Shown here: in pieces, positions 31,975 through 58,171 of the stretch | Numbering within the stretch: position 1 is the stretch's first letter | Layout of the letters: each line of letters opens with the position of its first letter | Assembly: GCA_947626095.1 (NCBI GenBank) | Contig: CANQQV010000001.1 | Location: 98,009 to 162,008 of the forward strand | Length of the DNA: 64,000 nt | Reading direction: 5' to 3' | Source: an uncultured Bacilli bacterium | GTDB taxonomy: Bacteria > Bacillota_I > Bacilli_A > RF39 > UBA660 | The notes under the pieces: generated by a model | What the model was told of the DNA's origin: nothing | Databases searched by the model: none | The model's input: only the letters and a program-made list of their open reading frames with translations | Program-made: the position numbers and the translations under genes

Positions 31975-32021
31975 TGCTATAATATTTAATGAAACAAATA
32001 GTAATTTATATGAGCAAACAA
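31975..32021 (+). repeat. promoter plus AAATAGTAATTT site, copy 1 (empty)
   Basis: TGCTATAATATTTAATGAAACAAATAGTAATTT|ATATGAGCAAACAA. Confidence 0.75.
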
Positions 32022-32043
32022 TATATTAATTTTACTTTTTTTC

Positions 32044-32076
32044 TGATATAATATTTGGTGAAAAAAATAGTAATTT
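32044..32076 (+). repeat. promoter plus AAATAGTAATTT site, copy 2 (followed by a gene)
   Basis: TGATATAATATTTGGTGAAAAAAATAGTAATTT then GGAGGAGG. Confidence 0.75.
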
Positions 32077-32096
32077 GGAGGAGGAGAAAATACTTA

Positions 32097-32357
32097 ATGA
32101 AAATTGAAATCATAATTTTATCAATGATAGCTATTGTAGTTGTTTTATTAGCTTTATTTAAAATAATAAAATATATAAGAAGTAATTATTCTATTAAACC
32201 TATAAAAATAATTTTATATTTTGTTTTAATGTGTATAGATATCTATGTTTTAGGAGTGATAGACTTTATTGAACATAAACTTTATGGTGTTCTATTTGTA
32301 GTAATCAATGCTTGTTTAATAGCATTCATAAGATATGGCGGAAGAAAAAAACGATAA
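32097..32357 (+). CDS. small 3-TM membrane protein (cassette-like cargo)
   Basis: GGAGG RBS; followed by AAATTACAATTT at 32361-32372. Confidence 0.7.
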   Translation: MKIEIIILSMIAIVVVLLALFKIIKYIRSNYSIKPIKIILYFVLMCIDIYVLGVIDFIEHKLYGVLFVVINACLIAFIRYGGRKKR

Positions 32358-32586
32358 TACAAATTACAATTTGTATGAGTAAACAAAAAAATTATATGTT
32401 AGTCTTTCATATTTTAAAAAAATATAGTATAATTTTAATGTAGTCAAAAATAAATAAGACTACTATTACATATATCGATTTCGAGCAGTATTAGAAAAAG
32501 ATATAAATAAAATTTAAGCAGTATTTAATTAAATGTTTTATTTAGTTGGATACTGCTCTTTTTTTTGCTTTAAGGAGAGAGATGTT

Positions 32587-32865
32587 GTGATAGAAGAAAA
32601 AATTATTGATTGGGATACGGATTTTGGTTATGTAGAAAGTAATTTACAAAGACTTATGGATAAACAAGGAATTACTATCAGCACCATGAGTCATCTAACA
32701 AATATTAAATATGAAATTGTTAAAAAATATTACTATGGGGAAAACTATGCCTTTAATTGTGAAATATTAGCAAAATTTTGTTATATTTTAGATTGCAATA
32801 TCGCTGATATTATCTATTATGTACCATCGAAAGACTTTGTAAATAAAGGCGATTTTAATGATTAG
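32587..32865 (+). CDS. Cro/C1-type HTH regulator
   Basis: LQRLMDKQGIT...LAKFCYILDCNIADII. Confidence 0.8.
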   Translation: MIEEKIIDWDTDFGYVESNLQRLMDKQGITISTMSHLTNIKYEIVKKYYYGENYAFNCEILAKFCYILDCNIADIIYYVPSKDFVNKGDFND

Positions 32866-33078
32866 AAATTGAAAGTAAATTATAACTTATCATATTTTTG
32901 TTTTGCTATTTTAAAAATCAAGGGATAAAATGGTTATAATAAGTCAAAAGTATATGGAAGAAGGACTTATACATATTCCTAGTTCTAGGAATTGACCGAA
33001 AAAAATCGTAGTGATATTATAGGACACAAGTATTAAAAAACGAGAGATATCGTTCTTGTACTTGGGGATGTGGTTACT

Positions 33079-33183
33079 ATGGTTACACAAGAATTAAGAT
33101 CTTTATTTGAATTTTACGAAGGTGTCGAAGTTTCTTCTTCCCCTGTTTTTTATAGCAATGATGACTTAATGAAAGAGAGCTAA
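33079..33183 (+). CDS. possible 34-aa leader peptide
   Basis: GGGGATG upstream; stop lies inside a terminator-like hairpin. Confidence 0.35.
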   Translation: MVTQELRSLFEFYEGVEVSSSPVFYSNDDLMKES

Positions 33184-33237
33184 TAATGTTCAAGGCATTA
33201 CGCTCTCTTTTTCTATTGTTTTGATTTGGAGGGTACT

Positions 33238-33699: not shown

Positions 33700-33793
33700 C
33701 AAAACGAGTTTATAGGGATCTCGTTATCAAAAAACTAAATTATAAAAATAAGGAGGTGAGATATTAGAAACTTGTAATCCATACTACTCTACA

Positions 33794-34573: not shown

Positions 34574-34590
34574 ATATAGGAGGGATTTTA

Positions 34591-35137: not shown

Positions 35138-35190
35138 TTTGACATATTTTTAAATTAGAGCTAACATCACTTTCAAAGAGGTGGTTCTTA

Positions 35191-35865: not shown

Positions 35866-38595
35866 ATGAAAAGTAAATTAAAATATTTATTATTTTTATT
35901 GATGTTTGTTGCTGTTTGCCCTAGTTTAACTGCTCATGCAGAAACTTATAAGGCAGAATTCAACGACAAATATAAATGGATTCCTAATGTTTATGTAAGT
36001 AAGAAAGAGTCTAATGGTCGTGTTCATTATCAACAACTAACAATGATTGCTCGTAAAGGTGATAATCAATTTGTTTATTGTATTGAACCAGGTACTCCAT
36101 TAGATCCTAACGAAACTTATACAGGTCAAGATTACGATCAATCTTATGTCGCAAACATGACCCCTGAACAATGGAAAAGAATTCAATTGTTAGCATATTA
36201 TGGTTATGGTTATAGTGATAGTGAAGTAAATCACGATGATATCAAATGGTATTCAGTAACTCAATTTATGATTTGGAAGACTGTACCACATGGTATGGAT
36301 ATCTATTTTACTGATACCTTAAACGGAAATAAAATTACAAGATATACCGAAGAAATGGAAGAAATGGAAAGATTACTTTCTAACCATTATAAAGTTCCTG
36401 ATTTTGGAGCTACAAGTTTTGATATGGTTGTAGGAAATACATTAAAATTAACTGATTCAAATAATGTAATTTCTAAATATGCTGTACCAAGTAATGATCT
36501 TATCACTGCAAGTAAAAATGGTAATGAATTACATTTAACTGCTAAAGGTGTTGGTGATGCAACTTTAAAATTAACTAAAAAGGATTTAAAATACTCTCAT
36601 CCTACTATTGTTTATGTTAAACCTAATACTCAAGATTTAGTTCAAGTAGGAAGTTATGATCCTGTTGATACAACTATAAATCTTCATATTGTTGGTGGTA
36701 AAATTGCTATCAATAAAGTTGATTATGATACAGGTTTATCAGAGCCAAGAGGCATGGCTACTCTTGAAGGAGCTATCTATGGGGTATATTTAGAAGATGG
36801 TACTTATGTAACTCAAATGGTAACTGATAAAAATGGTCATGCACAAAGTGATTATTTACCAAGTTTAGGTAGATTTTATGTTCAAGAAATCAGCCCAAGT
36901 AAAGGTTATGAACTTGATACAAATAAATATTACTTTGACTTAACTAATGATAATTTAGATCCTGTTCTTCCTGTTCAAGAAAAAGTTATCGAACGAGAAT
37001 ATCAAATAACAAAAGTAGTCGCTACTGATAAAACACAAATTATGACTCCTGAACCTAATGTTCAATTTGGCATCTATGATCATAATAATAAACTTGTTAA
37101 AACTTTAACTACTGATGCTGAAGGAAAAATTACATTTACTCTCCCTTATGGTAAATATACTTTAAGACAATTAACGACTCCAAGTGGCTTTGAAAAGATA
37201 AAAGATTTTAATTTTGAAATTACGGAGTCAGGAGATACTATTAACAAGGTGTTCTCTAATGCAGAAATAACAGCAAGAATTAAAGTTGTTAAAATAGATC
37301 AAGATGGTAATGTTGTCACTAAAGCAGGTATTAAGTTTAAGATAAAGGATCTTTCAACAGGTAAATATGTATGTCAAACTGTTGCTTACCCTAATCAAAA
37401 AACTTACTGCGAATTTGAGACTGATGAAAATGGTATGCTTATAACTCCATACCCTTTAAATTCAGGTGACTATCAACTTGAAGAAGTAGACCAACTTATT
37501 GATGGATATTTATGGAACTCTGAACCATTAAAGTTCTCTATTAATGAAAACTCTGATATTAAAAGTACCAATGACTTTGATGCCATTATGGAAATTAGAT
37601 TTACTAATCAAGAAGTAAAAGGTAAAATTGAAATCCAAAAAACTGGCGAACAAGTCGTAATTGAGGATGGCAAATTCACTTATGTTGAAGTACCACTACC
37701 TAATATTACTTTCGGTTTATATGATGCTGAAGGTAGCTTGATTGATACTTATACTACTGATGAACAAGGTAGAATTGTTATCGAAGATCTTAAATTAGGT
37801 AATTATGTTTTAAAAGAACTTAAAACTGATGATAAATATGTTCTTGATGAAAAAGAATATAACATCGAGTTAAAGTATAAGGATCAATACACAGCTGTTG
37901 TAACTGAAACCTTTACTTTAAAAAATTACTTAAAGAAAGGTACTTTAGATTTTTCTAAAAAGGATCTAACAACTGGTAAAGAAATTCCTAATGTTAAATT
38001 AGAGGTTTATACTGAAAACGATGAGCTTATTTATAGTGGCATTACTGATGAAAATGGTAAAATCACTATCGAAGATTTATTCGTCGGTAAATTCTATATT
38101 GTTGAAACTGAACCTGCTACTGGTTATAAATTAAGTGATGAAAAAGTATATTTTGAAGTTAAGGAAAACGGCGAAATAGTAAAAGCCGAAATGACAAACG
38201 AAAAAATTACAGGATCACTTGAATTTACAAAAGAAGATCTTTCTACTGGTGAGGCACTTCCTAATACTTTAATCGAGGTATATAATGCCGAAACTGATGA
38301 GTTAGTATTTTCTGGTCGTACCGATGAAAACGGAAAGATTATTATTGAAAACTTGGAATATGGTAAATACTATATTTTAGAGAAGGAAGCTCCCGAAGGA
38401 TATAAATTAAATCCTGATAGAATGTATTTTGAAATTCTAGAGGACGGACAAGTTATTAAATCAGTAATGAAAGATGAAATTGTTGATGTTCCTAATACTG
38501 GTATCAATGATTATCATATTATTGATATTATAGGTCTTGTCTTTATCATTGGTGGTATTGGTTTCCTTATTTATGAAAAAACAAAGAAAAAATAA
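35866..38595 (+). CDS. thioester-domain (TED) adhesin with SpaA/CnaB repeats and VPNTG sorting signal
   Basis: Signal peptide; YCIEPG and TQFMIW; TTDxxG and ExxAPxGY repeats; VPNTG-TM-basic tail. Confidence 0.85.
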   Translation: MKSKLKYLLFLLMFVAVCPSLTAHAETYKAEFNDKYKWIPNVYVSKKESNGRVHYQQLTMIARKGDNQFVYCIEPGTPLDPNETYTGQDYDQSYVANMTPEQWKRIQLLAYYGYGYSDSEVNHDDIKWYSVTQFMIWKTVPHGMDIYFTDTLNGNKITRYTEEMEEMERLLSNHYKVPDFGATSFDMVVGNTLKLTDSNNVISKYAVPSNDLITASKNGNELHLTAKGVGDATLKLTKKDLKYSHPTIVYVKPNTQDLVQVGSYDPVDTTINLHIVGGKIAINKVDYDTGLSEPRGMATLEGAIYGVYLEDGTYVTQMVTDKNGHAQSDYLPSLGRFYVQEISPSKGYELDTNKYYFDLTNDNLDPVLPVQEKVIEREYQITKVVATDKTQIMTPEPNVQFGIYDHNNKLVKTLTTDAEGKITFTLPYGKYTLRQLTTPSGFEKIKDFNFEITESGDTINKVFSNAEITARIKVVKIDQDGNVVTKAGIKFKIKDLSTGKYVCQTVAYPNQKTYCEFETDENGMLITPYPLNSGDYQLEEVDQLIDGYLWNSEPLKFSINENSDIKSTNDFDAIMEIRFTNQEVKGKIEIQKTGEQVVIEDGKFTYVEVPLPNITFGLYDAEGSLIDTYTTDEQGRIVIEDLKLGNYVLKELKTDDKYVLDEKEYNIELKYKDQYTAVVTETFTLKNYLKKGTLDFSKKDLTTGKEIPNVKLEVYTENDELIYSGITDENGKITIEDLFVGKFYIVETEPATGYKLSDEKVYFEVKENGEIVKAEMTNEKITGSLEFTKEDLSTGEALPNTLIEVYNAETDELVFSGRTDENGKIIIENLEYGKYYILEKEAPEGYKLNPDRMYFEILEDGQVIKSVMKDEIVDVPNTGINDYHIIDIIGLVFIIGGIGFLIYEKTKKK

Positions 38596-39214
38596 AAATA
38601 ATGGTAAGAGCCGATTCATAGTAATTGGCTCTTTATTTATTTTGTTTGGTGTTTCTATTATTGGCTATCATATATATTCTAATTACAAGTTAGATAAAAT
38701 AGCAGACGATAATATTGAGCAATTTTTTGAAGAAGAAAAAATTATCGATGATCAGCCACAGGAAGAACAATTTGTTGAAGTAGAAAAAAAAGAAGTTAGT
38801 AAAACTAATTATGATTACATTGCTGTAATCGAAATACCTAAAATAAATGTTAAAAGAGGTTTGTCACAAGATAAATATTACAATAATGTTAATAGGAATA
38901 TTGAGATTCTTAAAGGATCTACTATGCCTGATGTTTCACAAGGTAATTTTATGGTTGCTGGTCATTCAGGTACAGCTCGAACTTCCTATTTTAGAAATTT
39001 AGATAAGTTAGTAATTGGGGATCTTACTTATATATATTACAATGGCATTAAATATACTTATAAAGTTAATAATATTTATGATATTGAAAAAACTGGTAAA
39101 GCAACTATTCGTAGGGATTTAAATAAAACTACTCTTACGATGATTACTTGCCGACATAATACCAACAAGCAGATTGTTGTTATTTCCGAGTTAGTTAATA
39201 AAGAAACTTATTAA
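38573..39214 (+). CDS. sortase
   Basis: AGHSG, LTMITC, N-terminal TM. Confidence 0.9.
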   Translation: MKKQRKNKNNGKSRFIVIGSLFILFGVSIIGYHIYSNYKLDKIADDNIEQFFEEEKIIDDQPQEEQFVEVEKKEVSKTNYDYIAVIEIPKINVKRGLSQDKYYNNVNRNIEILKGSTMPDVSQGNFMVAGHSGTARTSYFRNLDKLVIGDLTYIYYNGIKYTYKVNNIYDIEKTGKATIRRDLNKTTLTMITCRHNTNKQIVVISELVNKETY

Positions 39215-39227: not shown

Positions 39228-40583
39228 ATACAAATATTAGCAGTTAATCAAGTCGGACAAAAATGGTATCTTGATATATTAAGGAATGCTTTATGGAGTA
39301 TCGCTAAAGGTATTCTATGGTTTCTTGATGGCTTCTTTGATATCATTGATAAGATTTGGCGATATAAATTTTTTGATAATGATTATGTTAATAAGATTTT
39401 TGGTGGAGCTTTAATAATCGCCTGTTCATGGCTGATTCTTAAAACGATTATTGAATTGATTATGAATTATATAGTCAAAAACGATGGTCGTGGCAGTCCA
39501 CTAACTATTTATCGTGGTGTAATTCTTGCTATTGTAATGATGTTCTTAATCAATCCATTATTTCAATTTGGATATGATTTTTCGACTAAAACAACTGATG
39601 CTGTTATTTCAGTATCAGGTATGAGTGGATCTAGTAGTGCTGAAGGTACAATATCAAAAGCATTAATTAGGGCTATGTCGTATGATGATGAAATGAAAGA
39701 AAGCGATAAAAATTATTTAATAAACAATTGGAAGACCATAGATATAAATTCTACTGAAGGTGGAGTTGTTGGTATTGGTGATGTTTATAAATATTCGCTT
39801 AACTTTTTTATGCTGATAGTTCTCTCAATTGTAACTATCTTTTTATTATTCTTTGTGGCGATTCAGATGGCTAAACGAGTCATGGAAATCGCTCTGATGA
39901 AGATAGTCGGACCTTTCTGCTGTACGAGTCTGACTAACAATCAATCTAAAGCATTTGAAACATGGACTAAAAGTACAATGGGATATTTCCTTATAACTAT
40001 TGTTCAATTCATTTGTATAGGATTATTACTTAATATGTTTGGATCTGCTATTCAAGATAATGGAACTCTAACAGGAATATTCTTAATTATTGGTGCTTTA
40101 TTATTCGTAATAAGTACGCCTACATTAATTAGTTCTCTATTAGGTCAACAATCAGGTATGATGTCTGCCTTTGGCGATATGCAATCATTACTTGCAATTG
40201 GTAGTGGTGTTAATGCAGGGCTTTCTCTTGCTAAAGCAGGATCTATGTCTGCTCTTGGTATGGGAGCTAATGTTGTTAAAGGTGGAGCTAATAAAATATC
40301 AGGAGGCATTTCAAATATGTTTGGTGGACATGGTGGTGGTTCGTTAAATAAAGAACAAATGGCTAATGTTCAAGAAAAATTAGGACAACATAATAGTTAT
40401 GGTGCTAATCAATTAGTAAAACAATATACCCAAGAAAATATGAAGAAAAAACCTACTACTTCATTTACTAATTCTAATCCATATAAAAATCCATTCAGTA
40501 TGCAATATAACCCAATTAGAAATCAGTATATGAGCAATTCAGGACTTGAGGCAAATAGTAATTTTGATAGGAAGTGGTATTAA
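39228..40583 (+). CDS. VirB6/TrbL-like conjugation membrane protein (ATA start proposed)
   Basis: Multi-TM with Gly-rich tail; frame open 76 codons upstream of ORF-track start to ATA 8 nt after GGAGG. Confidence 0.75.
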   Translation: MQILAVNQVGQKWYLDILRNALWSIAKGILWFLDGFFDIIDKIWRYKFFDNDYVNKIFGGALIIACSWLILKTIIELIMNYIVKNDGRGSPLTIYRGVILAIVMMFLINPLFQFGYDFSTKTTDAVISVSGMSGSSSAEGTISKALIRAMSYDDEMKESDKNYLINNWKTIDINSTEGGVVGIGDVYKYSLNFFMLIVLSIVTIFLLFFVAIQMAKRVMEIALMKIVGPFCCTSLTNNQSKAFETWTKSTMGYFLITIVQFICIGLLLNMFGSAIQDNGTLTGIFLIIGALLFVISTPTLISSLLGQQSGMMSAFGDMQSLLAIGSGVNAGLSLAKAGSMSALGMGANVVKGGANKISGGISNMFGGHGGGSLNKEQMANVQEKLGQHNSYGANQLVKQYTQENMKKKPTTSFTNSNPYKNPFSMQYNPIRNQYMSNSGLEANSNFDRKWY

Positions 40584-40967: not shown

Positions 40968-42884
40968 ATGGCTAAAAAAGAAGTTAACACAGATTTATGG
41001 GTTAATGATATTTTAAAAGAAGCTAATATTAAATTGACAGCACAAGGATGCGATATAATTGAAATCGATAATGCATTAAAAACGGCATCAAAAAACGGAA
41101 CTGGAAATGTTGGGTTTCCTGAATATTGTGGAGTCGTAAAAGATTTTGTAATTGTTATTGAAGATAAACCAACAATCGATAAACAAGTTAAATTTGATGA
41201 AAATGGCATTTTGGATATGGATGTAAAGTCTATAAAGGATTATGCTCTAAATGGTGCTTATTTTTATGCAAAACATATTTTAGAAAATACAAATTATAAA
41301 AAAGCAATTGCATTCGGTATTAGTGGTAATGAAAAAAATCATATTATTAAACCTATATATCTTGATGGTAGAGAATATTATATGGACTTACCTGAAGTTG
41401 AAAGTTTTATTCAGTTCAATAGTGAAAATATAGATGAATACTATATTAGGGAAATTTTAAAAGAGGATACTGATGAAGAAAAAACAACTGCTGAAATTAT
41501 CAATGATGCTAAAGAACTGCACGAATACTTGAGAAACTATGGTAATTTAAAAGATACTGATAAACCATTAGTAGTAAGTGGTATTCTTCTTGCATTAAGA
41601 GAAATGGAATTCAAAAATTTTTCAATAGATCAATTAAATGGTGATAGTGAAAAAACTGACGGATTAAAAATTTATAATGCAATAGAGGATAATTTAAAAA
41701 GATCTCAAGTATCTCCTGAAACTAAAAAGGATAAATTATTATCGCAATTTGCTTTAATAAAAGACACCGTTGTACTAAACGAAATTAATCCCATATTAGG
41801 GAAAACACCTTTAAAATATTATACGGAATATTTATATCAAAAACTATATAAAACTATTAGATATAATAAAACAGCTGAAGATTATCTTGGAAGATTCTAT
41901 GGCGAATTTATGAGTTATAGTGGTGGCGATGGTCAAAGTTTAGGAATAGTTTTAACTCCAAAGCATATTTGTTCATTATTTTGTGATTTAATAGATTTAA
42001 ATGAAAATGATATCGTTCTTGATCCTTGTTGTGGTACAGCTGGATTTTTAGTATCTGCAATGCATCATATGACATCTAAAACTAGCAATCCAGATTTAAT
42101 AAGAAAAATTAAAAGAGAACAGCTACATGGCTTTGAATTACAACCTTATATGTTTACTATTGCTACAACTAATATGATATTGCGTGGTGATGGTAAAAGT
42201 AATTTAATTTGTGATGATTTTTTAGCACAAGATCCTAATAAAATACAATTGAAAGGTGCTACTGTTGGAATGATGAACCCACCTTACTCTATGGGTAAAG
42301 TTAGTCCTGAAAAGTGTGAGTTAAGTTTTGTAGAGCATTTATTAGATTCTCTTACAACTGATGCTCGTTGTATAGTTATTGTTCCACAAAGTGCAATGAC
42401 TGGTAAAAATGGATATGAAAAAGCAATCAAAAAGAATATTTATAAAAAGCATACTTTAGAAGGGGTAATTACTCTTAATACTGATACATTTCACGGTGTT
42501 GGAACAAATCCTTGTATTGCAATATTTACTGCTCATGTTCCTCATAATAAAAATAAAATTTGTAAATTTATAAATTTTGAGAATGATGGATTTGTTGTTC
42601 AAAAACATAGAGGATTGGTTGAAACAGAAATTGCTAAAGATAAAAAACAACATTTGCTTGATGTTTGGAATGATAGAATTGAGTCATCAACTAAATTTTG
42701 TGTTAAAACTACTGTGGAAGATGATGATGAGTGGTTACATTCTTTTTACTATTTTAATGATGAAATACCTACTGAGGATGACTTTGAAAAAACAATGGCT
42801 GACTATTTAACCTTTGAATTTTCAATGGTAATGCAAAATAGAGATTATCTATTTAAAGGTGGCGATCATAATGAACTTGAATGA
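40968..42884 (+). CDS. BcgI-like type IIB RM endonuclease-methyltransferase subunit
   Basis: N-terminal PE...EDK nuclease motif; DPCCGTAGF and NPPY; 638 aa. Confidence 0.85.
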   Translation: MAKKEVNTDLWVNDILKEANIKLTAQGCDIIEIDNALKTASKNGTGNVGFPEYCGVVKDFVIVIEDKPTIDKQVKFDENGILDMDVKSIKDYALNGAYFYAKHILENTNYKKAIAFGISGNEKNHIIKPIYLDGREYYMDLPEVESFIQFNSENIDEYYIREILKEDTDEEKTTAEIINDAKELHEYLRNYGNLKDTDKPLVVSGILLALREMEFKNFSIDQLNGDSEKTDGLKIYNAIEDNLKRSQVSPETKKDKLLSQFALIKDTVVLNEINPILGKTPLKYYTEYLYQKLYKTIRYNKTAEDYLGRFYGEFMSYSGGDGQSLGIVLTPKHICSLFCDLIDLNENDIVLDPCCGTAGFLVSAMHHMTSKTSNPDLIRKIKREQLHGFELQPYMFTIATTNMILRGDGKSNLICDDFLAQDPNKIQLKGATVGMMNPPYSMGKVSPEKCELSFVEHLLDSLTTDARCIVIVPQSAMTGKNGYEKAIKKNIYKKHTLEGVITLNTDTFHGVGTNPCIAIFTAHVPHNKNKICKFINFENDGFVVQKHRGLVETEIAKDKKQHLLDVWNDRIESSTKFCVKTTVEDDDEWLHSFYYFNDEIPTEDDFEKTMADYLTFEFSMVMQNRDYLFKGGDHNELE

Positions 42885-43941
42885 TAAAGAATGGAGACCA
42901 TTTCCATTAGATAGTTTAGAAAAAGATGGAATTTTTAATATTTTTTCTACATCTAGTGGTATTGATAAAAACAAACTCGAAAATTTAGAAGGCAATATAC
43001 CATATATTACTAGAACTGACAAAAACAACGGAATAGAAAACTTTATAGGTAAACAACTAAATTCAAAATGGAATATCGATAAAGGAAATGTAATAACAAT
43101 TGGATTAGATACTCAAACAGTTTTTTATCAACCAAATTATTTTTATACAGGGCAAAATATACAAATATTAAGTAATGACAATTTAAATTACTATACTGCA
43201 ATGTTTATTATTCCTTTACTGAAAATTCTTTTAAAAAAATTTAGTTGGGGTGGAAATGGAGCAACACTAACAAGATTAAAAAAAAGTAAAATAATGTTAC
43301 CTATAAATGATAATGGGACTCCTGATTATATATTTATGGAAACATATACAAAAGAAAAAGAAAAAAATATGTTAAAAAAATATGTTGAATATATAAAAGT
43401 TCAAGATAAGTTCGATATGAATTCTATATCTCGTATAGTTTCATGGAAAGAATTTAAAATTAGTGATATATTCAATGAAATATCTAGGGGTAAAAGATTA
43501 AAAAAAGATAATCATATAGTTGGTAATATACCCTATGTATCTTCAACAATGCTAAACAATGGAGTTGATGGATTTATTGGTAACTCTAACGGAAGATCAT
43601 TTAATAATTGTATAACAATTGCAAATAGTGGTTCAGTTGGTTATAGTTTTTATCATCCTTATAATTTTATTGGTAGTGATCATGTAACAGCATTGAAAAA
43701 TAAAAGTTATGATAAATATATTTATTTATATATATCTACTATGTTAAAAACTTTAAGTGAAAAATATAGTTTTAATAGAGAGATAAATGATTATAGAATA
43801 AATAAGGAAAAAGTATTGTTGCCAATTAATCCAAAAACAAATGAAATAGATTTCGAATATATGGAACAACATATGAAAAAAGTAATGATTAATCAAATTA
43901 AAAAATACTTGAATTATGTTGAAAATAGAATTTATGGTTAG
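42871..43941 (+). CDS. RM specificity subunit (two TRDs)
   Basis: Two repeats GNIPY...LP...FMExY; overlaps the MTase stop. Confidence 0.85.
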   Translation: MNLNDKEWRPFPLDSLEKDGIFNIFSTSSGIDKNKLENLEGNIPYITRTDKNNGIENFIGKQLNSKWNIDKGNVITIGLDTQTVFYQPNYFYTGQNIQILSNDNLNYYTAMFIIPLLKILLKKFSWGGNGATLTRLKKSKIMLPINDNGTPDYIFMETYTKEKEKNMLKKYVEYIKVQDKFDMNSISRIVSWKEFKISDIFNEISRGKRLKKDNHIVGNIPYVSSTMLNNGVDGFIGNSNGRSFNNCITIANSGSVGYSFYHPYNFIGSDHVTALKNKSYDKYIYLYISTMLKTLSEKYSFNREINDYRINKEKVLLPINPKTNEIDFEYMEQHMKKVMINQIKKYLNYVENRIYG

Positions 43942-43972: not shown

Positions 43973-44104
43973 ATGAAATATGTTATTATAGGGCTAATAG
44001 GAATATTAGTTCTTTTTATTTACTCTGCTTGTGTTGTATCAAGTAGATGTTCTCGTGAAGAAGAAAAATGGAGGGATGAAAATGAGCATTCTACAAGAAT
44101 ATGA
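43973..44104 (+). CDS. 43-aa single-TM protein (not in ORF track)
   Basis: GGAGG RBS, MKYVIIGLIGILVLFIYSAC... Confidence 0.6.
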   Translation: MKYVIIGLIGILVLFIYSACVVSSRCSREEEKWRDENEHSTRI

Positions 44105-44594
44105 ACAAATTAGAAAAGAAATGGGTTCTACTCGTTTCGATGCTATTGGTGATTATCTCAATGAAATCAATAAGAATAGCAATACTGAATTGTTTTTATC
44201 TGATGTCTTATATAAGCAACAAGAATATGCCAAGTTTGATGCTTGGTTTTTAGATCAAATAGCACCTTTTAAATTATTTGAACAAGACAATTCTATTGCT
44301 CTAATTTTAGATGAAGAAGATTTTAAAAGCGATGCTTTTGTTAATCGTGAAGTAGATCAAATATACTCTAATGGTTATGGATGGGATCAAGTTATAAAAT
44401 CATATATCAATGATCATTTTCCTAATATGTTAGATAATGTATATTTCGATTCGGAGCTATCAATGTTTTGTGTTTATTTTAATGATAAAAGAGACTTTGA
44501 CGAATTATCTTATAACTTTATTAAGTTATATAAAGATGATGTTGCCTTAAAAGATTATATTGATAATATGAAAATTATTGATATCAATATATAA
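44082..44594 (+). CDS. protein with Imm51-like C-terminal domain
   Basis: NGYGW...FDSELSMFCVY. Confidence 0.55.
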   Translation: MSILQEYEQIRKEMGSTRFDAIGDYLNEINKNSNTELFLSDVLYKQQEYAKFDAWFLDQIAPFKLFEQDNSIALILDEEDFKSDAFVNREVDQIYSNGYGWDQVIKSYINDHFPNMLDNVYFDSELSMFCVYFNDKRDFDELSYNFIKLYKDDVALKDYIDNMKIIDINI

Positions 44595-50825: not shown

Positions 50826-51224
50826 ATGGAACAATTAGATTTAAAATTAGATGAATATAAAAAGTCTTTAATTACAATTAACATTAGTGACCAGTATTGG
50901 TGTATGGTAGACTTATGTTTTGAAAATGAATATTTTAAATATAATAATTGTTCAGAGATGTTGCAAAAAACGGAAGTTAAAAGGATCTATGAAACTTTAA
51001 CTTCCTGTTTAGCAGGTCGACTTGCAGATAATACTAAATTGTCATTCGATGAAGATTATTTGCAATTCTATTTTTACAAAGATAAAATAGATAATCAACA
51101 TTGTGTCGAATTAAGAATATTCACTTTTATAGATGAATACAGGGATTATTATTCAGTAATGTTAACTACACCAGAAATGAGTGAGTTAAGGGATTATTTA
51201 TATGAATTAGTAAAAAAGTTTTAA
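50826..51224 (+). CDS. hypothetical protein
   Basis: Own TGTTATAAT promoter; terminator after stop. Confidence 0.65.
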   Translation: MEQLDLKLDEYKKSLITINISDQYWCMVDLCFENEYFKYNNCSEMLQKTEVKRIYETLTSCLAGRLADNTKLSFDEDYLQFYFYKDKIDNQHCVELRIFTFIDEYRDYYSVMLTTPEMSELRDYLYELVKKF

Positions 51225-51822: not shown

Positions 51823-52881
51823 ATGAAAGATGATTTTATCTTGGAAGATACAGAAACGACCAAGAGATTAAAAGAAATTTGTTTAAGTAGTAGTTATTCA
51901 TGTACTGGGGAAATTCGTAGATTGTTGAGTATGGAAGTGCTTCATAATCTAGTTAAGAAAATTCCTAAAGGCAATGTTAAATTATGTGGTAATATTTTGT
52001 TTGGAAGGGACAAGATTAGTAGCGAAGAAAAGTTTATTGAGAACTTGGATGATTATATCGGCTATGTCAAAGATCATTATCATATACAGCATAATGAGTT
52101 AACTTGTGTTTTAGAAGAAACTTTGAAAAGTAAATATTCAAAGATACTCTTTAATATGAAGGATATTCATAAAAAGGATAATTATATTCAGTTTCATGAT
52201 TCATTTAGAAAAATGTTCTTATTTAACCTATATGATAACATTCGTTTTTACTCAAAGTTTTCTGATAGTCGTTCTTTTACTAATATATTATTAGATGAAA
52301 TAAAAGAATATAATTTTGATAAACCCGAAGATGCTATTAAACTTGAAAAGTTATTTATTAAAATTATCAACAATAGAAAAGATAACTTATTTAATTCATT
52401 TGTACATCATAGTGAAGTTAGAGAGGATCAATATGATTTCTTTACTAATCAAATCGAATGGTTAATTGGTGATTATTATAAGGAAGGATCATATGATTTT
52501 GATTTAATGCATGATGATCACTATATTGAATTATTTAATAATGACACTTTGCTTTTTAATGTTATTTCAAAGAGTAAAGATGAAATTGTTGTTAGATTTG
52601 GAATTAAAAACAAAAACTTTAAAGGCGATAAAATAGTAAGATTTGGAAAAAATGAATTAGATATATTTTTAGAAAAATTAGTTTCTAAAGATCATACAAA
52701 AAAATATAAATTGGATATGCAACTAGTAGATGCAACATTATCTTTTGAGTTTTGGACTGATTATCATCATAATTTTTTAGATATTGCTTTTCAATATTCG
52801 AATACTGGTGATAAGTTTATTGTAGATTTAGAACCAGATGATATGCATAATTTATATAAAATTATAAAGAAACAAGTCTAA
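51823..52881 (+). CDS. hypothetical protein
   Basis: 352-aa ORF with GGAGG RBS. Confidence 0.7.
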   Translation: MKDDFILEDTETTKRLKEICLSSSYSCTGEIRRLLSMEVLHNLVKKIPKGNVKLCGNILFGRDKISSEEKFIENLDDYIGYVKDHYHIQHNELTCVLEETLKSKYSKILFNMKDIHKKDNYIQFHDSFRKMFLFNLYDNIRFYSKFSDSRSFTNILLDEIKEYNFDKPEDAIKLEKLFIKIINNRKDNLFNSFVHHSEVREDQYDFFTNQIEWLIGDYYKEGSYDFDLMHDDHYIELFNNDTLLFNVISKSKDEIVVRFGIKNKNFKGDKIVRFGKNELDIFLEKLVSKDHTKKYKLDMQLVDATLSFEFWTDYHHNFLDIAFQYSNTGDKFIVDLEPDDMHNLYKIIKKQV

Positions 52882-52888
52882 ACTTGTT

Positions 52889-54391
52889 TCAGATTGTTGA
52901 CAAAAGGGTATTATTTTTGAATAATGCCCTTTTTATTTTAGTTATTGACATTAAAATTGTTTTTTGAACATTATTTTTAGTCATATCCATTTTGTTTTCC
53001 CCTTTATTTGATTTCCACATTGCCATTTTCTTTAAATTGTAGCATGAAAAAATTAAGAGTACTTGGTTTTTATTTTTTTCTAAACCTCTTACTCTTGTAA
53101 ATCTTAATCCATGTTGTTCTTTACAAATTGCAAAAATACGTTCAACTGTTTCCTTTCTTTTTGGATACTCTTGTTTAAATAAATCTTCATATCTTTTTTG
53201 ATTTGCTTTATCTTTTTTATCTTGCCATATGTGTCTTGTTATAACTTTTTGATGATTTTTACTTTTTGTACACTTTTTTAGTAGAGGACATTTTGAACAG
53301 CTTTCTTTATTGGCTTTATATATTTTATATCCTTTTTTATCTATTGTTTTAAGTTCCAGTATTTCTCCTGTTGGACATACATAACAATCATTTTTTGCAT
53401 TATATTCATATTCTTTTTTTGAAAACATTTCTTTATCTTTTCTACCTTTTGGTCTTGAATATGGCATTAATGCTTCTTTTCCCGTATCTTCAATTTTTTT
53501 ACAAATAGCTGATGTATTATATCCTGCATCTAAACAAACATTATCTATTTCTTTATCGTAGTCATTCAACAACTCTTCATATACACTTTCAAATGCGACA
53601 CTATCATGAGTATTACCTGAATTTGTTGAACATGCTACAACAAAACCATTTCCATCACTAAAAGCTTGATGTGTATATGCAAAACATTTTTCATGTTCTC
53701 CTTTGTGATAGTATCCACTATCTGGATCTATCGTACTAGATTTTATATTTTTTTTCTTCTTGACTTCTATTTCTTCTCCTGTTTTTTCATCGAAATCTTT
53801 TTCAATTATTTCGATACTTTTAAATGGTTTTTTATTTAATTTTAAACGTCCTTCATTTATTTCTTTTAGTAATTCTTCATCATATGATTTTAATTCAATT
53901 TCTACTTCTAAGTCTTCATACTTGTTTTTATTTGCATTAGCCTTTTGATGAGTTCCATCTCCATATACTGTCTTCATATTTAACATTTTATATTCTTTTG
54001 CTTGTTTTAATATTCTTTTAAATATAGTTTTGAATATATCTGTATTTCTATATCTTCTTATATAGTTTTGACTCCAAGTACTATAATCTGGTATTTTATC
54101 ATCTATTGATAATCCCAAATACCATCTATATGCTAAATTTACTTCACACTCACTGCATGTTTTTCTCATCGAATTTATACCAAACATGTAATTTATAATT
54201 AACAATTTAAAAAGTACCAAAGGAGGAATACTTGGTTTACCAAATGCACTGTATAGATTTTCAACTTCATCTTCAATGAATTTTAAATCTATGACTTTAT
54301 CTAATTTTCTAACCAAATGTTCTTGAGGTACTATATCTTCTATCGTTTTTAATATTATACAATCATTTCTAAATTCTTGTCTTGACATCAT
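52889..54391 (-). CDS. IS1182-family DDE transposase
   Basis: GKPSIPP, DGTHQKANA, DAGY, RKETVERIFA. Confidence 0.9.
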   Translation of the reverse strand: MMSRQEFRNDCIILKTIEDIVPQEHLVRKLDKVIDLKFIEDEVENLYSAFGKPSIPPLVLFKLLIINYMFGINSMRKTCSECEVNLAYRWYLGLSIDDKIPDYSTWSQNYIRRYRNTDIFKTIFKRILKQAKEYKMLNMKTVYGDGTHQKANANKNKYEDLEVEIELKSYDEELLKEINEGRLKLNKKPFKSIEIIEKDFDEKTGEEIEVKKKKNIKSSTIDPDSGYYHKGEHEKCFAYTHQAFSDGNGFVVACSTNSGNTHDSVAFESVYEELLNDYDKEIDNVCLDAGYNTSAICKKIEDTGKEALMPYSRPKGRKDKEMFSKKEYEYNAKNDCYVCPTGEILELKTIDKKGYKIYKANKESCSKCPLLKKCTKSKNHQKVITRHIWQDKKDKANQKRYEDLFKQEYPKRKETVERIFAICKEQHGLRFTRVRGLEKNKNQVLLIFSCYNLKKMAMWKSNKGENKMDMTKNNVQKTILMSITKIKRALFKNNTLLSTI

Positions 54392-54562
54392 TATTTATCA
54401 CATCCTTAGTTTAACCACTAATATTATCTCATAAAAGCAATAAAAAAACGAGATATATGTGACAAACATTGGTTAAACTAAGTCATATCTCGTAATTAAA
54501 TTATAAAATAAATTTAAAAAAAAGAAAAGACCATTAACAAAATTTCTTTTGTCAACAGTCTG
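52890..54562 (-). mobile_element. IS1182-family insertion sequence with 20-bp target duplication
   Basis: TIRs CAGA(T/C)TGTTGACAAA; AAACAAGTCTAAACTTGTTT at 52870-52889 and 54563-54582. Confidence 0.9.
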
Positions 54563-54601
54563 AAACAAGTCTAAACTTGTTTTTTATTTGGAGGGATATA
54601 A

Positions 54602-56389
54602 ATAAAAATTAAAAAATACTTTAACTATTTTCTTTTATTCATCTTAACTTTTTTAGCATCCTCGAATATTTGCTATAATCTTACTCATATAATCGAAACA
54701 AATATAAAATTAACTTGGAATTTAAATTTCTTTCACTCCTTTCTAAAAACGATTACTGATGTTAGTTTATTATTTGGTTCATTATTGCTTATGTCAATTA
54801 TGATGTTATTTATATTGAAATATGATAAAGAATTTAAGTTAAAGCTAAATAAATTTAAAAAGATGCCTGAAGAAGACGGATCATATGAGTATGGATCTTC
54901 TCGTTGGGCTACTAAAAAAGAAATTAGAAAAAATTATAAGACATGGAATATCAATTCAAAATTAAAGTCAGGTGGTATTCCTGTAACTTATATGGATGGT
55001 AAATATTACTATTCGGATAAATTTGATCATACTTTGATTATTGGTTCTACTGGTTCAGGTAAAACTATCAGTTGTATATTGCCACTTATATTCAATTTAG
55101 GATGTGCTGGTGAGTCAATGGTTATAAATGATACTAAAGGCGAACTTTATTCTTATACTGCTGACTTTTTAAAGAAAAAAGGTTATAAGATTCGAATAAT
55201 CAATTTAAGAGATGCTCTTGCAAGTGATGGTTGGAACCCACTTCATTTACCTTATAAATATTATCAAAGTAATAATAAAGATGAGGCAGGAGATCTAATT
55301 GAAAACTTTTCTAAATCTTTATGTAAAAACTTATCATCTAAAGATATGTATTGGGAAAAGTCAGCAACTGCTGTTTTGTCTGCTTTATGTTATGCTCTTA
55401 TTGAAGATGCTCCTAGTGAGTCACAAGTAAATTTATATTCTATATATAATTTATTGGTTGAACATGGAAGTAAAACTATTGATAGATTCAACTCGTTAGA
55501 TTTATATTTTCAACAAAAACCTTTCGGTAGTTTAAGTAAGATGAGTTATGCTACTGGTTCTTTTGCAAAGGGCGAGACTAGAGCTACTCTTTTCTCTGTC
55601 CTAGCAACTGTCATCAAAATGTTTAGTGATACAGGAATTGCTAACTTAACTAGTCGTACTGATTTTGAATTAGATGATATTGGGAAAAAGAAAACTGCTG
55701 TATTTTTAATTATTCCTGATGAAAAAGAGTCTAGACATGAATTAGCATCATTGTTTATCGATCAATGCTATCAAGCATTAGTTAATACAGCTCAAAATAT
55801 GAAAGATGGTCGTATGCCTATTAGAGTTAATTTTATACTTGATGAATTTGCTAATATGCCACCTATAAGTTCTATATCAAATAAGATTACTGTCAGTCGA
55901 TCTCGTAATATTAGATTCTATTTAGTTTTACAAGATTTTGATCAGTTGAAAGAAACCTATAAAGATTCTGCAGGTACTATTAAATCAAATTGTACTAACT
56001 GGATTTATCTTCTGACTGCAGATAATGAAACAGCAAAAGAAATAAGTTCAAGGTTAGGAAAATATACTATTTCAAGTAACAGGGTTTCTACTTCTACTCG
56101 TTTGGAACAATTGGATTATAATATTTCGAATGATAAATCTTTAATTGGTCGTGAGTTATTGATGCCTGATGAACTTATGCGATTTAAATTAGGCGATGGC
56201 TTATTCATATCGGCTAGACAATACCCAATTAGATCTAAATTACTTCCTATTAGTCAGTATGGAATAAAAATAAAAATGTCATCCGTTCCTAAAAAAGCAA
56301 AAGACTTTACTATTGATTGCTTTAATCTTGATGAGTTTAGAAAGAAAAAAATACAACAAGACGATGATGGCAAGGTAGATTTAGTATAA
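54602..56389 (+). CDS. virD4: VirD4/TraG coupling protein (ATA start proposed)
   Basis: GSTGSGKT, DTKGEL, LDEFAN; first TM lies in the 61 codons upstream of the ORF-track start. Confidence 0.9.
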   Translation: MKIKKYFNYFLLFILTFLASSNICYNLTHIIETNIKLTWNLNFFHSFLKTITDVSLLFGSLLLMSIMMLFILKYDKEFKLKLNKFKKMPEEDGSYEYGSSRWATKKEIRKNYKTWNINSKLKSGGIPVTYMDGKYYYSDKFDHTLIIGSTGSGKTISCILPLIFNLGCAGESMVINDTKGELYSYTADFLKKKGYKIRIINLRDALASDGWNPLHLPYKYYQSNNKDEAGDLIENFSKSLCKNLSSKDMYWEKSATAVLSALCYALIEDAPSESQVNLYSIYNLLVEHGSKTIDRFNSLDLYFQQKPFGSLSKMSYATGSFAKGETRATLFSVLATVIKMFSDTGIANLTSRTDFELDDIGKKKTAVFLIIPDEKESRHELASLFIDQCYQALVNTAQNMKDGRMPIRVNFILDEFANMPPISSISNKITVSRSRNIRFYLVLQDFDQLKETYKDSAGTIKSNCTNWIYLLTADNETAKEISSRLGKYTISSNRVSTSTRLEQLDYNISNDKSLIGRELLMPDELMRFKLGDGLFISARQYPIRSKLLPISQYGIKIKMSSVPKKAKDFTIDCFNLDEFRKKKIQQDDDGKVDLV

Positions 56390-56392
56390 TTA

Positions 56393-56425
56393 TGTTATAA
56401 TATTTAGTGAAACAAATAGTAATTT
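56393..56425 (+). repeat. promoter plus AAATAGTAATTT site, copy 3 (followed by two genes)
   Basis: TGTTATAATATTTAGTGAAACAAATAGTAATTT then GTAGGAGG. Confidence 0.75.
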
Positions 56426-56439
56426 GTAGGAGGAAAATT

Positions 56440-56874
56440 ATGAAATTATTTAAAAAATCAAAAAATAATAATTTTGAGTTAATATGTGAAAAAATGGCAA
56501 ATGAGTTAATTAGTTTATATAATAAAAATAAAGGTATATCTTTTGAAAATATTTCTGAATTAGAAAGACAAATTTTAGCAGTATATTTTTTTGGTATGAG
56601 TGATGGATTAAGACAAGATTTAGCGACTAATTCAAATGTAAATGAAATAGCCAATATAATTATAAATATTATGATTAAAGATTTTAAGTATTCAAAAGAA
56701 CAAGCAGAACAATTCTTTGATGAAATGATAGATAATCTTCAAAGTAAAAATCCAAGCAACACCCATTATGCTATTATTCACAATGGTCTTGATGGTTATT
56801 TTAAATGGCAAAAAAATAACAAAAATGAAGTGATTAACGATATTTGTAAAATTATTGATATACTAAAAAAGTAG
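56440..56874 (+). CDS. Imm48-like orphan immunity protein (cassette-like cargo)
   Basis: ELERQILAVYFFGM and IIHNGLDGY; followed by AAATTACAATTT at 56879-56890. Confidence 0.6.
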   Translation: MKLFKKSKNNNFELICEKMANELISLYNKNKGISFENISELERQILAVYFFGMSDGLRQDLATNSNVNEIANIIINIMIKDFKYSKEQAEQFFDEMIDNLQSKNPSNTHYAIIHNGLDGYFKWQKNNKNEVINDICKIIDILKK

Positions 56875-56978
56875 CATTAAATTACAATTTATATAATCAA
56901 AAAAATCTAACTCTACTAATTGTAGGTGTTAAAAATTGTGTTAATATTATATAGTTGTTTTTGAAAGGAGCAAGAAGT

Positions 56979-58130
56979 ATGGATCAAGAAAAAATAGGAA
57001 AATTCATTGCAACTTGTAGAAAAGAACAAAAATTAACACAAGAGCAACTTGCTGAAAAATTAGGAATAACTTATAAAGCAGTATCTAAATGGGAATGTGG
57101 TAAGGGATTACCTGATGCATCTATTATGATGGAGTTATGCAAAATTTTAAAAATAACAGTTAATGATTTATTAAGTGGCGAAAAAGTTAAAGAAAAAGAA
57201 TATCAAGAAAAACTAGAAAAAAACATTATTGATACAATAGATTATTCTACCAAAAAATTATTTGAAAAAAATAAACTGATTTATCAAATGCTTATATTCT
57301 TTGGTTTAGTTTTAATCTTTATTGCCTTTACTAATTTTCCAAATGATAGTAGTTGGGGTTCTATTCATTCTATGATAGGATTACTTATTTCTACTTTTGG
57401 GATTGTTAATATAAAAAGTGGTAAAACTATTTTAAAAAAGATATCTTTGGGTATAGTTTATTTTATGATAGGTTTTATATTATTACTTTTACTTGATTAT
57501 TCTAATGTAGTATTAAATAAAGTTGCCCCTAGATTTTCTTATTTAAAAGAAACTGGGGATACTATGATTATTTATAAAGCACCTTTTTATAATGTATATA
57601 GAATAAATAGAGATACTAAAAATGAGTATTATATAATCGATACAAAAAAAGAATACACAGAAAGTAATATACCGATAACTCCATTTAATAGAGACAAATC
57701 AGGAATTGACAACATAATACAATATAAAAATAAATATGTTGGTAATAATAGTAATGATAGTCATTTAATAGATAACTTACCACTCGCTGAATATGGATAT
57801 GTATTTGAAATAGATTCTAAAAATCTAGGACTTATTATTGATTACCACATTACAGACTGGTATGTTAATGAGGGACATTATTTGGAAAAATCATTATTAT
57901 ATAATTCAGTATCAATATTTGCTTTAATAGATAATGTAGAACAAATTACTTTTAATTTTAGTGGGAATACATATATAGTAAGTAGAAAACAAATAAATGA
58001 ATTGTATCCTAATTTTAAAGATATAGTAAATAATGGAATTAATCAAAATAATTTCAATAAGTATTTAGAAAGCAAAATTAATGATAATAATTTTGTGGAA
58101 GATACATTTAAAAAAATATTTGTTAATTAA
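56979..58130 (+). CDS. XRE-HTH membrane regulator with DUF4825-like external domain
   Basis: MDQEKIGKFI...AVSKWE; TMs; KYVGNNS and FALIDNV; followed by AAATTATAATTT at 58129-58140. Confidence 0.8.
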   Translation: MDQEKIGKFIATCRKEQKLTQEQLAEKLGITYKAVSKWECGKGLPDASIMMELCKILKITVNDLLSGEKVKEKEYQEKLEKNIIDTIDYSTKKLFEKNKLIYQMLIFFGLVLIFIAFTNFPNDSSWGSIHSMIGLLISTFGIVNIKSGKTILKKISLGIVYFMIGFILLLLLDYSNVVLNKVAPRFSYLKETGDTMIIYKAPFYNVYRINRDTKNEYYIIDTKKEYTESNIPITPFNRDKSGIDNIIQYKNKYVGNNSNDSHLIDNLPLAEYGYVFEIDSKNLGLIIDYHITDWYVNEGHYLEKSLLYNSVSIFALIDNVEQITFNFSGNTYIVSRKQINELYPNFKDIVNNGINQNNFNKYLESKINDNNFVEDTFKKIFVN

Positions 58131-58145
58131 ATTATAATTTATTCG

Positions 58146-58171
58146 AGTAGAAAACCATCTACTCTTTTTTT
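58146..58171 (+). terminator. intrinsic terminator
   Basis: GAGTAGA-AAACCA-TCTACTC followed by T-run. Confidence 0.75.

Follow-up and report, generated by a model that had tools for sequence, protein, structure and literature searches.

To our knowledge, integron-like capture of gene cassettes is known almost only from Gram-negative bacteria, and it depends on IntI. Here we describe a comparable arrangement in a 64,000-nt stretch of DNA (the window) from contig CANQQV010000001.1 of an uncultured Bacilli bacterium, within an integrative conjugative element (ICE) of about 33 kb. Its recurring part is a 33-bp block, predicted to contain a promoter, that ends in the 12-mer AAATAGTAATTT and stands in front of unrelated genes. 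The gene units, or cassettes, end in the same 12-mer or in a second one, AAATTACAATTT.

As in integrons, a resident promoter (here predicted) precedes single-gene cassettes that are mostly promoterless and all point the same way. A recombination-type site closes each cassette, at or over its stop codon, platforms occur empty and filled, and the cargo is diverse, often of no known function, and includes acetyltransferases and immunity-like proteins. Unlike in integrons, the one tyrosine recombinase of the window is not IntI, and none stands beside the block in the related loci searched. Integrons have folding attC sites of 57-141 bp with R and L boxes, whereas here 12-mers lie in sequence-invariant near-palindromes of 16-20 bp. 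These sites are of two types, internal and terminal, and the platform resides in ICEs and mobilisable elements of Bacilli.

The PeSL motifs are mobile regulatory cassettes of T4-type phages (PMC2839356, PMC4122927). As described in the first of these papers, conserved promoter-plus-terminator motifs flank small variable open reading frames (ORFs), and two motifs surround an ORF in one genome where a relative has one motif without the ORF, both of which resemble the present case; empty/filled pairs and mini-circles are demonstrated there, and its authors themselves liken the arrangement to integrons (PMC2839356). PeSL hosts are lytic phages with their own recombination machinery and the motifs occupy T4-type hyperplastic regions, whereas here the hosts are bacterial conjugative or mobilisable elements, in the window an ICE with a type IV secretion system (T4SS), relaxase, T4SS coupling protein (T4CP) and integrase, and the block is in no viral contig or phage record searched. 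The PeSL tract described there is about 100 bp, against a 33-bp block, a 3' element of about 22-30 bp and internal junctions of about 12-17 bp in our loci. Cassettes here can also be joined by a bare 12-mer without promoter or terminator, and many slots have the block only or the 12-mer only, unlike the PeSL arrangement.

Accessory modules bounded by short near-palindromes, with no recombinase inside, are likewise described for the pdif (Xer) modules of Acinetobacter plasmids (PMC6449649, PMC13141974, PMC9947245), and in both systems the enzyme would come from the host. Sites of pdif modules are 28 bp long and resemble the chromosomal dif site of the host (XerC arm, 6 bp, XerD arm). Written as a 28-mer, the 3' element of our cassettes might, by eye, be divided in a similar 11-6-11 way, its 11-bp arms being symmetric at 9/11 positions. 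Promoter linkage and co-orientation of cargo are not known as pdif features, and pdif sites are longer and less AT-rich than those described here. Phage morons and ICE cargo hotspots also hold self-contained promoter-gene-terminator units between backbone modules at operon ends. They have no common junction sequence; in the present case the variable DNA of dozens of contexts is delimited by one and the same block and junction motif. By these comparisons the system would be integron-like in its working, PeSL-like in its layout and pdif-like in lacking a recombinase of its own, while differing from PeSL and pdif modules in host, site and promoter coupling. A literature search by titles, abstract openings and motif strings found no description of such cassettes in ICEs or Firmicutes.

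A near-invariant block in front of unrelated genes

The block measures 30 bp, TATAATATTTrrTGAAAmAAATAGTAATTT (TATAATATTTRRTGAAAMAAATAGTAATTT), or 33 bp including the preceding TGn. Three copies were found in the window at the places given by an earlier model-made annotation of the same DNA (the sequence-only reading), namely 31978-32007, 32047-32076 and 56396-56425, each preceded by TGn (these, the other parts of the slots, the 136-aa ORF, the T4CP gene and the integrase gene of the window lie on the forward strand). No copy appeared in 100 shuffles. A fuzzy search of the whole genome (a 1.6-Mb, 28% GC assembly of 34 contigs, 91% complete) returned the three window copies, one unrelated match with 6 mismatches and nothing else. 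The number of blocks in the window far exceeds chance.

Block copy 1 (31975-32007) lies downstream of a conserved 136-aa ORF of no known family (31514-31924) and consists of TGC, a predicted extended -10 promoter TATAAT and a leader ending in AAATAGTAATTT. It directly joins ATATGAG, continuing as ATATGAGCAAACAA, and this is the form we call empty. Its position is orthologous in three related loci (L004, L022 and L008), and it is the only copy at which a promoter scan flagged a -35-like hexamer. Next comes a spacer (32008-32043, ATATGAGCAAAC...TTTTTTTC) that is a decayed member of a terminator module, RTATGAGCAAAC, which recurs ahead of blocks at other loci; the spacer itself folds poorly (z -0.10). 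Together with block copy 2 (32044-32076; TGA plus the block, variant GG/A) it makes a 69-bp unit that is absent from L004. Block copy 3 (56393-56425) begins 3 nt past the stop codon of the T4CP gene (54785-56389) and includes ACAAATAGTAATTTGT, a 16-bp palindrome with 6-bp arms. A weak block-like stretch at 58189-58218, 83% identical to copy 2, may be a decayed copy or a chance match.

After deduplication, 48 distinct block contexts could be compared, the three of this window and 45 from other uncultured gut Bacilli, mostly metagenome-assembled genomes (MAGs) from rabbit. Most block positions are identical in 46-48 of the 48, the variable ones being positions 12, 16 and 18. The three bases after the block are GTA (G in 38, T in 37 and A in 43 contexts), with no similarity beyond them, and upstream of TGnTATAAT the contexts have no common sequence. 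Even where the position is the same, behind the T4CP gene, the window and L017 agree at 29/30 block positions and at merely 191/324 over the upstream 300 nt; against L008 the figures are 29/30 and 221/322. As judged from these alignments, the block is an island of identity among unrelated flanks. The junction motif is not a general host signal: its other exact copies in the genome lie in unrelated sequence without GTA and a ribosome-binding site (RBS), contig C16 excepted.

Cassettes of the window

Behind block copy 2 stands a cassette (32077-32357) with the RBS GGAGGAGG and an 86-aa ORF (32097-32357). The protein has three hydrophobic segments, after which we name the cassette 3-TM (transmembrane), and no family match; it is 100% identical over 86 aa to one behind a class C block in L004. 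The 3' element (32355-32382) reads TAA-TAC-AAATTACAATTT-GTATGAGTAA, with AAATTACAATTT at 32361, and the flank GTATGAGTAAACAA follows. ATACAAATTACAATTTGTAT in this element is a 20-bp palindrome, the central AC excepted, and its region forms a DNA hairpin of -4.5 kcal/mol (z -2.9). An HTH_26 gene lies 170 nt past the 32361 site.

Block copy 3 is followed by a cassette (56426-56874) made of the RBS GTAGGAGG and an ORF (56440-56874) that belongs to Imm48 (PF15574, E 7e-24). After the Imm48 stop codon comes AAATTACAATTT (56879-56890), and then the promoter region of the next gene, with no RBS. This next gene (56979-58130) encodes an HTH_3 (Xre-type) domain, a membrane segment and DUF4825; the start had been given one nucleotide late, at 56980. 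HTH_3-type membrane-protein genes lie to the right of cassettes in at least 10 related loci, and the one in the window is a candidate regulator or a candidate resident gene of the slot. Its stop codon is overlapped by a variant 12-mer, AAATTATAATTT (58129-58140), then comes ATTCGAGTAG, and a terminator-like hairpin, GAGTAGAAAACCATCTACTC plus a T run (58145-58164), closes the unit. What follows each block copy, that is the empty flank, the 3-TM gene, Imm48, the HTH/DUF4825 gene and the terminator, agrees with the sequence-only reading.

Enrichment of the 12-mer over the AT-rich background, on which the same reading depends, is weak in the window. With one mismatch allowed there are 25 matches against 19.9 expected, which is not significant, and the exact 12-mer AAATTAYAATTT has 3 sites (4 strand matches) against 0.86 expected, a count reached by 4/100 shuffles. 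Within the window the 12-mer alone is unconvincing, and its significance rests on the related loci, where the strand bias described below bears the claim out. An exact AAATAGTAATTT also occurs at 40553-40564, in the 3' end of the TrbL-like gene and 10 nt ahead of the start of a PrgI-like ORF. No block accompanies it, the next bases are TGA instead of GTA, and it is probably a chance occurrence.

Cargo differences and breakpoints at the junction

The same backbone slot carries different cargo in related elements, as had been anticipated. The slot behind the T4CP gene holds Imm48 in the window and a different gene in L017, and the one behind the 136-aa ORF differs between the window, L004, L008 and L022. 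In empty forms the AATTT of the block is fused to a right flank beginning RTATGA, and in filled forms the block is followed by one or more RBS-gene units, TAA-yAC-AAATTACAATTT and the same flank. Several right-flank families occur in both forms, in agreement with the displaced flank first noticed in the window. One family is empty in L051 and filled in L027, L025, L018 and L005; a second is empty in L023 and filled in L007 and L010; a third is empty at window copy 1, L020 and L041 and filled at the window 3-TM cassette, L018, L007 and L028. Ahead of the same sigma-factor operon, L020 is empty and contig C16 of this genome is filled. All 7 empty sites that run into RTATGA keep the block-type centre AGTA (AGCA in L041), a count to be read with the fact that the search patterns required an AGTA centre and were blind to the other outcome.

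Sequence identity between loci begins or ends at the 12-mer and its AATTT. An 88-aa DUF3953-like cassette stands behind a full block in L008 and, in L001, behind a bare AAATAGTAATTT 12-mer that ends another ORF. The two are identical at every aligned position, for about 120 nt, from the first base of the 12-mer. The pairs L012/L010 and L016/L057 have the same left identity boundary at the 12-mer. The 3-TM cassette is common to the window and L004, and the flanks diverge immediately past AATTT. Both breakpoints at the motif and recurrence of the same cargo between 12-mers had been proposed, and both are found. A PETase-like gene has two different right flanks. In L014, an array of block, gene, 12-mer, gene, 12-mer and gene contains unrelated genes whose junctions have about 15-17 bp in common (the 12-mer plus GTA). 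Compared with L004, the window has one extra 69-bp unit (ATATGAG, the terminator remnant and block copy 2) that starts with RTA and ends with AATTT. This unit between copies 1 and 2 is a recurring terminator-plus-promoter unit, and the 'empty copy' may equally be taken for one inserted unit or for a tandem duplication of the block.

Cassettes are co-oriented with the predicted promoter, as proposed. Exact AAATTACAATTT is found 16 times in 238 kb of non-redundant loci, each time on the block strand and never on the opposite one, and in 12/16 cases an ORF of at least 40 codons ends within 14 nt of the site.

Further information was obtained from 17 public metagenome runs (DNA, assembled contigs). 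Contig breaks at 31978, 32007/32011, 32065 and 32361-32382 appear in four rabbit or gut runs, each from a different study. The bin of copy 1 is covered 4-26 times as deeply as the neighbouring bin (344 vs 13 in X5, 330 vs 50 in X9), and loose contig ends at the breaks run into other cassettes and other flanks. Taken together, breaks, raised depth and loose ends indicate that the block is a multi-context repeat in these communities.

Two types of junction site

The block junction is a near-palindrome, ACAAAT-AGTA-ATTTGT, with 6-bp arms. The junction at cassette ends, ATACAAAT-TACA-ATTTGTAT, is a 20-mer palindrome save for the central AC, and consensus beyond it reaches RTATGAnTAA. The 12-bp quasi-palindrome of the sequence-only reading thus lies inside a larger near-palindrome of 16-20 bp, which spans the junction. 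Cassettes end in two ways. In the first (16 exact sites), TAA-yAC-AAATTACAATTT is followed by RTATGAG; in the second, AAATAGTAATTT occurs anew, and in 5/8 cases the preceding ORF stops at its TAG. The two 12-mers are 11/12 complementary and surround the cargo as inverted repeats with centres GT and AC. Five other block-bearing genomes have 0-8 core sites each. The sole further ACAAAT-N4-ATTTGT palindrome of this genome, at position 11234 of contig C15, was rejected as a terminator-like hairpin.

Distribution, contexts and cargo

An exact-pattern scan with one genome per species returned 27 loci, by title 22 'uncultured Bacilli' MAGs, 2 from a Phocaeicola-labelled bin and 1 each from Mollicutes, Clostridia and Tenericutes. 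Most related loci are short (2-8 kb) and derive from a single rabbit-gut study. When up to 2 mismatches are allowed, the block is present in 24/401 genomes sampled from the order and in 16/146 genera, this genome included. A scan of metagenome contigs added one contig, from human gut (L028). A scan of viral contigs gave 0 matches, and cultured plasmid and phage collections gave chance-level partial matches to the block only.

Blocks stand in several kinds of upstream context. Some follow relaxase genes, either Mob_Pre, in elements that also have a large serine recombinase (L028), or another relaxase. Others follow the T4CP gene, the 136-aa ORF at the ICE left end or the recurring terminator module, and still others lie at an element edge, directly behind a tRNA 3' end and a terminator. 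The system is not special to this ICE, being present also in mobilisable elements of the Mob_Pre/serine-recombinase kind and at tRNA-adjacent element edges. In the human-gut contig L028, the element that holds the block also encodes a Mob_Pre relaxase and a DUF4368-bearing large serine recombinase (9040-10647, 1582-2856), a layout that we take to resemble that of Tn4451.

An RBS and ORF start lie within 45 nt behind 26/40 exact blocks. First genes behind blocks encode Imm48, TfoX_N, a YbaK-type editing domain, two GNATs, a deaminase, a flavodoxin, an AAA_33 kinase, an ABC-F-like protein with a short leader ORF, HTH_3 membrane proteins and many small membrane proteins without a family. In L024 (also L026), a 6-codon leader ORF (MRILMI) and a hairpin lie in the 80 nt that follow the block, ahead of a 504-aa protein with two ABC_tran domains. 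Attenuator-controlled ABC-F ribosome-protection resistance genes have this same leader and hairpin layout.

Outside the ICE, contig C16 of this genome carries at about 33340-32560 (reverse strand) AAATTACAATTT-GTATGAGTCAAAT-AAATAGTAATTT ahead of a membrane-protein gene with a long leader, and contig C22 carries at about 1200-820 (reverse strand) a TfoX_N cassette behind AATAATAATTT|GAAAGTGAG. By their junction motifs, both belong to the same system as degenerate members. A chromosomal platform between recG and a P-type ATPase gene was considered and rejected: the L045 block lies in element-like DNA, and in a relative, genome G405, the ATPase gene has its own promoter and no block.

Search for a recombinase

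The sole tyrosine recombinase of the window is a 526-aa integrase (PF00589, 61741-63321), 3.6 kb past the last site. Its scores, 47.8 bits against TIGR02249 and 19.8 against NF011946, stay below the respective cut-offs of 265 and 435, so the window contains no IntI-like gene, as had been noted. In five other block-bearing genomes, family searches found no recombinase on contigs with a full block, save a large serine recombinase 3.6 kb from the block on contig C18 of genome G124. On contig C23 of G141, a tyrosine recombinase lies immediately upstream of a bare 3'-type site. As to co-occurrence with a recombinase family, 2 of the 5 genomes lack a match to PF00239 (serine recombinase), and all 5 have Xer-sized tyrosine recombinases, as has the present genome, with two, of 305 and 308 aa. 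Xer-sized genes in all genomes checked are a permissive hint for Xer.

Other features of the element

The left end of the ICE is marked by tRNA-Trp(CCA) at 30929-31002, the sole match in a search of the window for RNA families. Just beyond the integrase, near the right end, a tRNA-like 3' fragment (GGGTTCAACTCC...CCCCTGCCA) at 63826-63853 has only CCCCTGCCA in common with the tRNA end and is a probable displaced attachment-site half. Repeats of GTGGCACAA / TTGTGCCA at 63370-63690 resemble arm-type sites.

ICE genes encode a TrbL-like protein, a VirB4-like ATPase, an M23 peptidase, a NikA-like protein, a MobL relaxase and an ArdC-N protein. Inside the transfer region, 35866-39214 hold a 909-aa surface protein, probably a conjugation adhesin, that combines a thioester domain with six SpaA-type domains, and then a sortase. 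Methylase and specificity genes of a type I restriction-modification (RM) system, with the restriction subunit not adjoining, occupy 40968-43941 between the PrgI-like gene and Imm51. Three orphan immunity genes are dispersed in the ICE without adjoining toxin genes: Imm51 (44031-44594), WapI-like (50826-51224) and Imm48 (56440-56874). Only Imm48 is preceded by the block, which is absent from the other cargo genes of the window (Imm51, WapI-like and type I RM).

An insertion sequence (IS) with a DDE_Tnp_1_6 transposase (52889-54391, reverse strand) lies between hairpin-forming copies of AAACAAGTCTAAACTTGTTT (52871-52893 and 54559-54581) and seems to have inserted in or beside the terminator between a 352-aa ORF and the T4CP gene. 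A tmRNA (transfer-messenger RNA) gene called by ARAGORN at 2565-2927 (reverse strand) has the tag peptide VHIYRVYYYIA, atypical for a tmRNA tag.

Discussion

We observe directly how the slots are built and oriented, that they occur empty and filled, where the breakpoints fall and that the system is spread over many contexts, and we infer promoter activity, an enzyme, circular intermediates and the exact crossover point. The shared architecture, the precise empty and filled forms, the junctions of 12-17 bp and the strand bias point to recombination at a defined site. We hypothesize that units are exchanged at the junction by a site-specific recombinase acting in trans, a reading to which we give a probability of roughly 45%. 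The block would be the fixed front end of a cargo slot common to ICEs and mobilisable elements of uncultured small-genome gut Bacilli. It would supply the extended -10 promoter (TGnTATAAT) and a short leader ending in the near-palindromic junction aCAAAT-AGTA-ATTT|GTA. Cargo units would be promoterless and consist of GTA, an RBS and one or more ORFs. A unit ending in AAATAGTAATTT, whose TAG is often the stop codon, would be followed by a further cassette, while one ending in TAA-yAC-AAATTACAATTT, then RTATGAG and a terminator or the next promoter, would close the transcription unit. Units would be gained, lost and swapped by recombination with the crossover in or adjoining AATTT|GTA. Conservative site-specific recombination would be favoured, with a tyrosine recombinase as the leading candidate enzyme, possibly the host Xer pair. 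The breakpoints at AATTT agree with the insertion point of the sequence-only reading; no enzyme or circular intermediate was found in the searches above, and 'site-specific' is our interpretation.

It is tempting to go further and propose an integrase-less, promoter-coupled cassette system. Its core of 16-28 bp (aCAAAT-NNNN-ATTTGTA) would be cut and rejoined by a trans-acting recombinase, Xer or an unrecognised one, single RBS-gene units would be loaded behind a standard promoter in ICEs and mobilisable elements and traded across genera, and two heterospecific site types (centres AGTA and TACA) would mean 'continue' and 'end'. We regard this fuller version as doubtful, although attractive.

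Several observations weigh against a recombinase in trans. A tblastn search with 8 recombinase queries against loci L001-L058 (the window's three excluded) gave matches in L005 and L028 only. The ICE integrase is a generic one, and its attachment site is the tRNA end. A dif probe (an 11-nt XerD-arm motif with a symmetry filter) gave 206 weak matches in this 91%-complete genome, none of them a credible dif site. The two site types align about equally well in direct (19/25) and inverted (20/24) orientation, so that the alignments favour neither polarity. As single-strand DNA the sites form weak hairpins (-3.6 and -4.5 kcal/mol), and the invariance over 30 bp is unlike integron attC and as expected of homology-driven exchange or concerted evolution. 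Assembled contigs, which cannot reveal rare forms, showed neither circles nor joints between cassettes. The contexts also lack full independence, since a single rabbit-gut study supplied most of the loci. Finally, an RBS and ORF follow AAATTACAATTT in 0/16 cases and free AAATAGTAATTT in 7/8, whereas free insertion of cassettes at the block predicts internal AAATTACAATTT sites. This difference is not predicted by a plain attI x attC scheme, and it suggests that the motifs also, or only, carry a regulatory meaning, 'continue' versus 'end'. The integron comparison made in the sequence-only reading is thus supported in part, the two site types not being interchangeable.

The alternative that survives best is modular shuffling driven by homology, and we consider it a real possibility, though on balance we lean against it. 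The identical block and the 3' element with its terminator would serve as short homologies, much as in PeSLs, for general or single-strand-annealing recombination with no dedicated recombinase. The invariance of the block over 30 bp, as expected of recombination that prefers perfect homology, favours it, as do the regulatory grammar (AAATAGTAATTT before an RBS, AAATTACAATTT before terminators) and the lack of a linked recombinase in the loci and genomes searched. A composite of RTATGAGCAAAC terminator and block, the PeSL layout, recurs between genes in L001, L018, L021, L023 and at window copy 2, and in degenerate form in L011 and L030. The PeSL work reports the same logic of empty and filled sites, with mini-circles and with crossovers placed between the -10 box and ATG, but over homologies of about 100 bp and reliant on the highly active recombination system of the phage (PMC2839356). 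In our loci, internal junctions have only about 12-17 bp in common. Such lengths are below the usual minimum for RecA-type recombination. That 7/7 RTATGA empty sites keep the block-type centre points to a fixed crossover side, within patterns blind to the alternative, and the strand bias and conserved GTA fit a defined site.

Another explanation is that the palindromes are purely regulatory, as operators of Xre-type HTH proteins, as RNA hairpins or through 5'-3' pairing, and that cargo differs through ordinary indels and region replacement. HTH_3 membrane proteins lie to the right of cassettes in many loci, including 56979-58130 of the window, and an HTH_26 gene lies near 32361. The 16-20-bp palindromes overlap the predicted transcript start, which is a typical position for operators. 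The 11/12 complementarity of the two 12-mers would allow a transcript's 5' leader to pair with its own 3' end, and the continue/end grammar also fits. However, a regulatory role leaves unexplained that identity between loci starts and stops exactly at the motifs, that operator-like sites stand between all genes of the L014 array, and that precise empty forms are repeated in several flank families. We therefore think it unlikely that regulation is the whole explanation; it is compatible with recombination at the same sites and does not replace it.

Less likely still, and in our view improbable, is a unit resembling a miniature inverted-repeat transposable element (MITE) or mobile insertion cassette, with either the terminator-plus-promoter unit of about 66-69 bp or a whole promoter-gene-terminator unit moved by a transposase encoded elsewhere into AATTT targets. 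The difference between the window and L004 is exactly one such 69-bp unit, from RTA to AATTT, a unit of L018 between AAATTACAATTT and AAATAGTAATTT bears 11/12 inverted 12-mers at its ends, and the block occurs in many unrelated contexts. Against this stand the few copies per genome (0-8 core sites in five other block-bearing genomes, 3 blocks here), the lack of a target-site duplication beyond the common AATTT, the often degenerate left ends of the terminator units and the lack of a transposon-end sequence upstream of TGnTATAAT. No associated transposase was found in our searches, the IS of the window (52889-54391) being unrelated to the sites. An on/off switch in which cargo flips between the 12-mers, which do flank it as 11/12 inverted repeats, is rejected: inverted-looking cassettes occur in 0/48 contexts, exact AAATTACAATTT is found 0 times on the opposite strand vs 16, and a scan for minus-strand ORFs of at least 60 codons ending within 150 nt past the block gave two matches, a 67-aa ORF in L024 and one in L049, which lacks a motif at the start and belongs to the backbone as a convergent gene, TetR-like by eye.

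In summary, a standard promoter, as predicted, and a junction motif bound swappable single-gene cargo in conjugative and mobilisable elements of uncultured gut Bacilli. If the exchange is enzymatic, it would offer accessory genes, resistance genes possibly among them, a new way of being packaged for transfer. If it is driven by homology, it would extend the principle of phage PeSLs to conjugative elements. Should the integrase-less reading be true, these elements would hold a Firmicute counterpart of integrons and pdif modules. The short site could also be a handy marker for mining cargo from metagenomes, and under either mechanism the block and its junctions provide a concrete, testable model of how the cargo slots of ICEs are filled.

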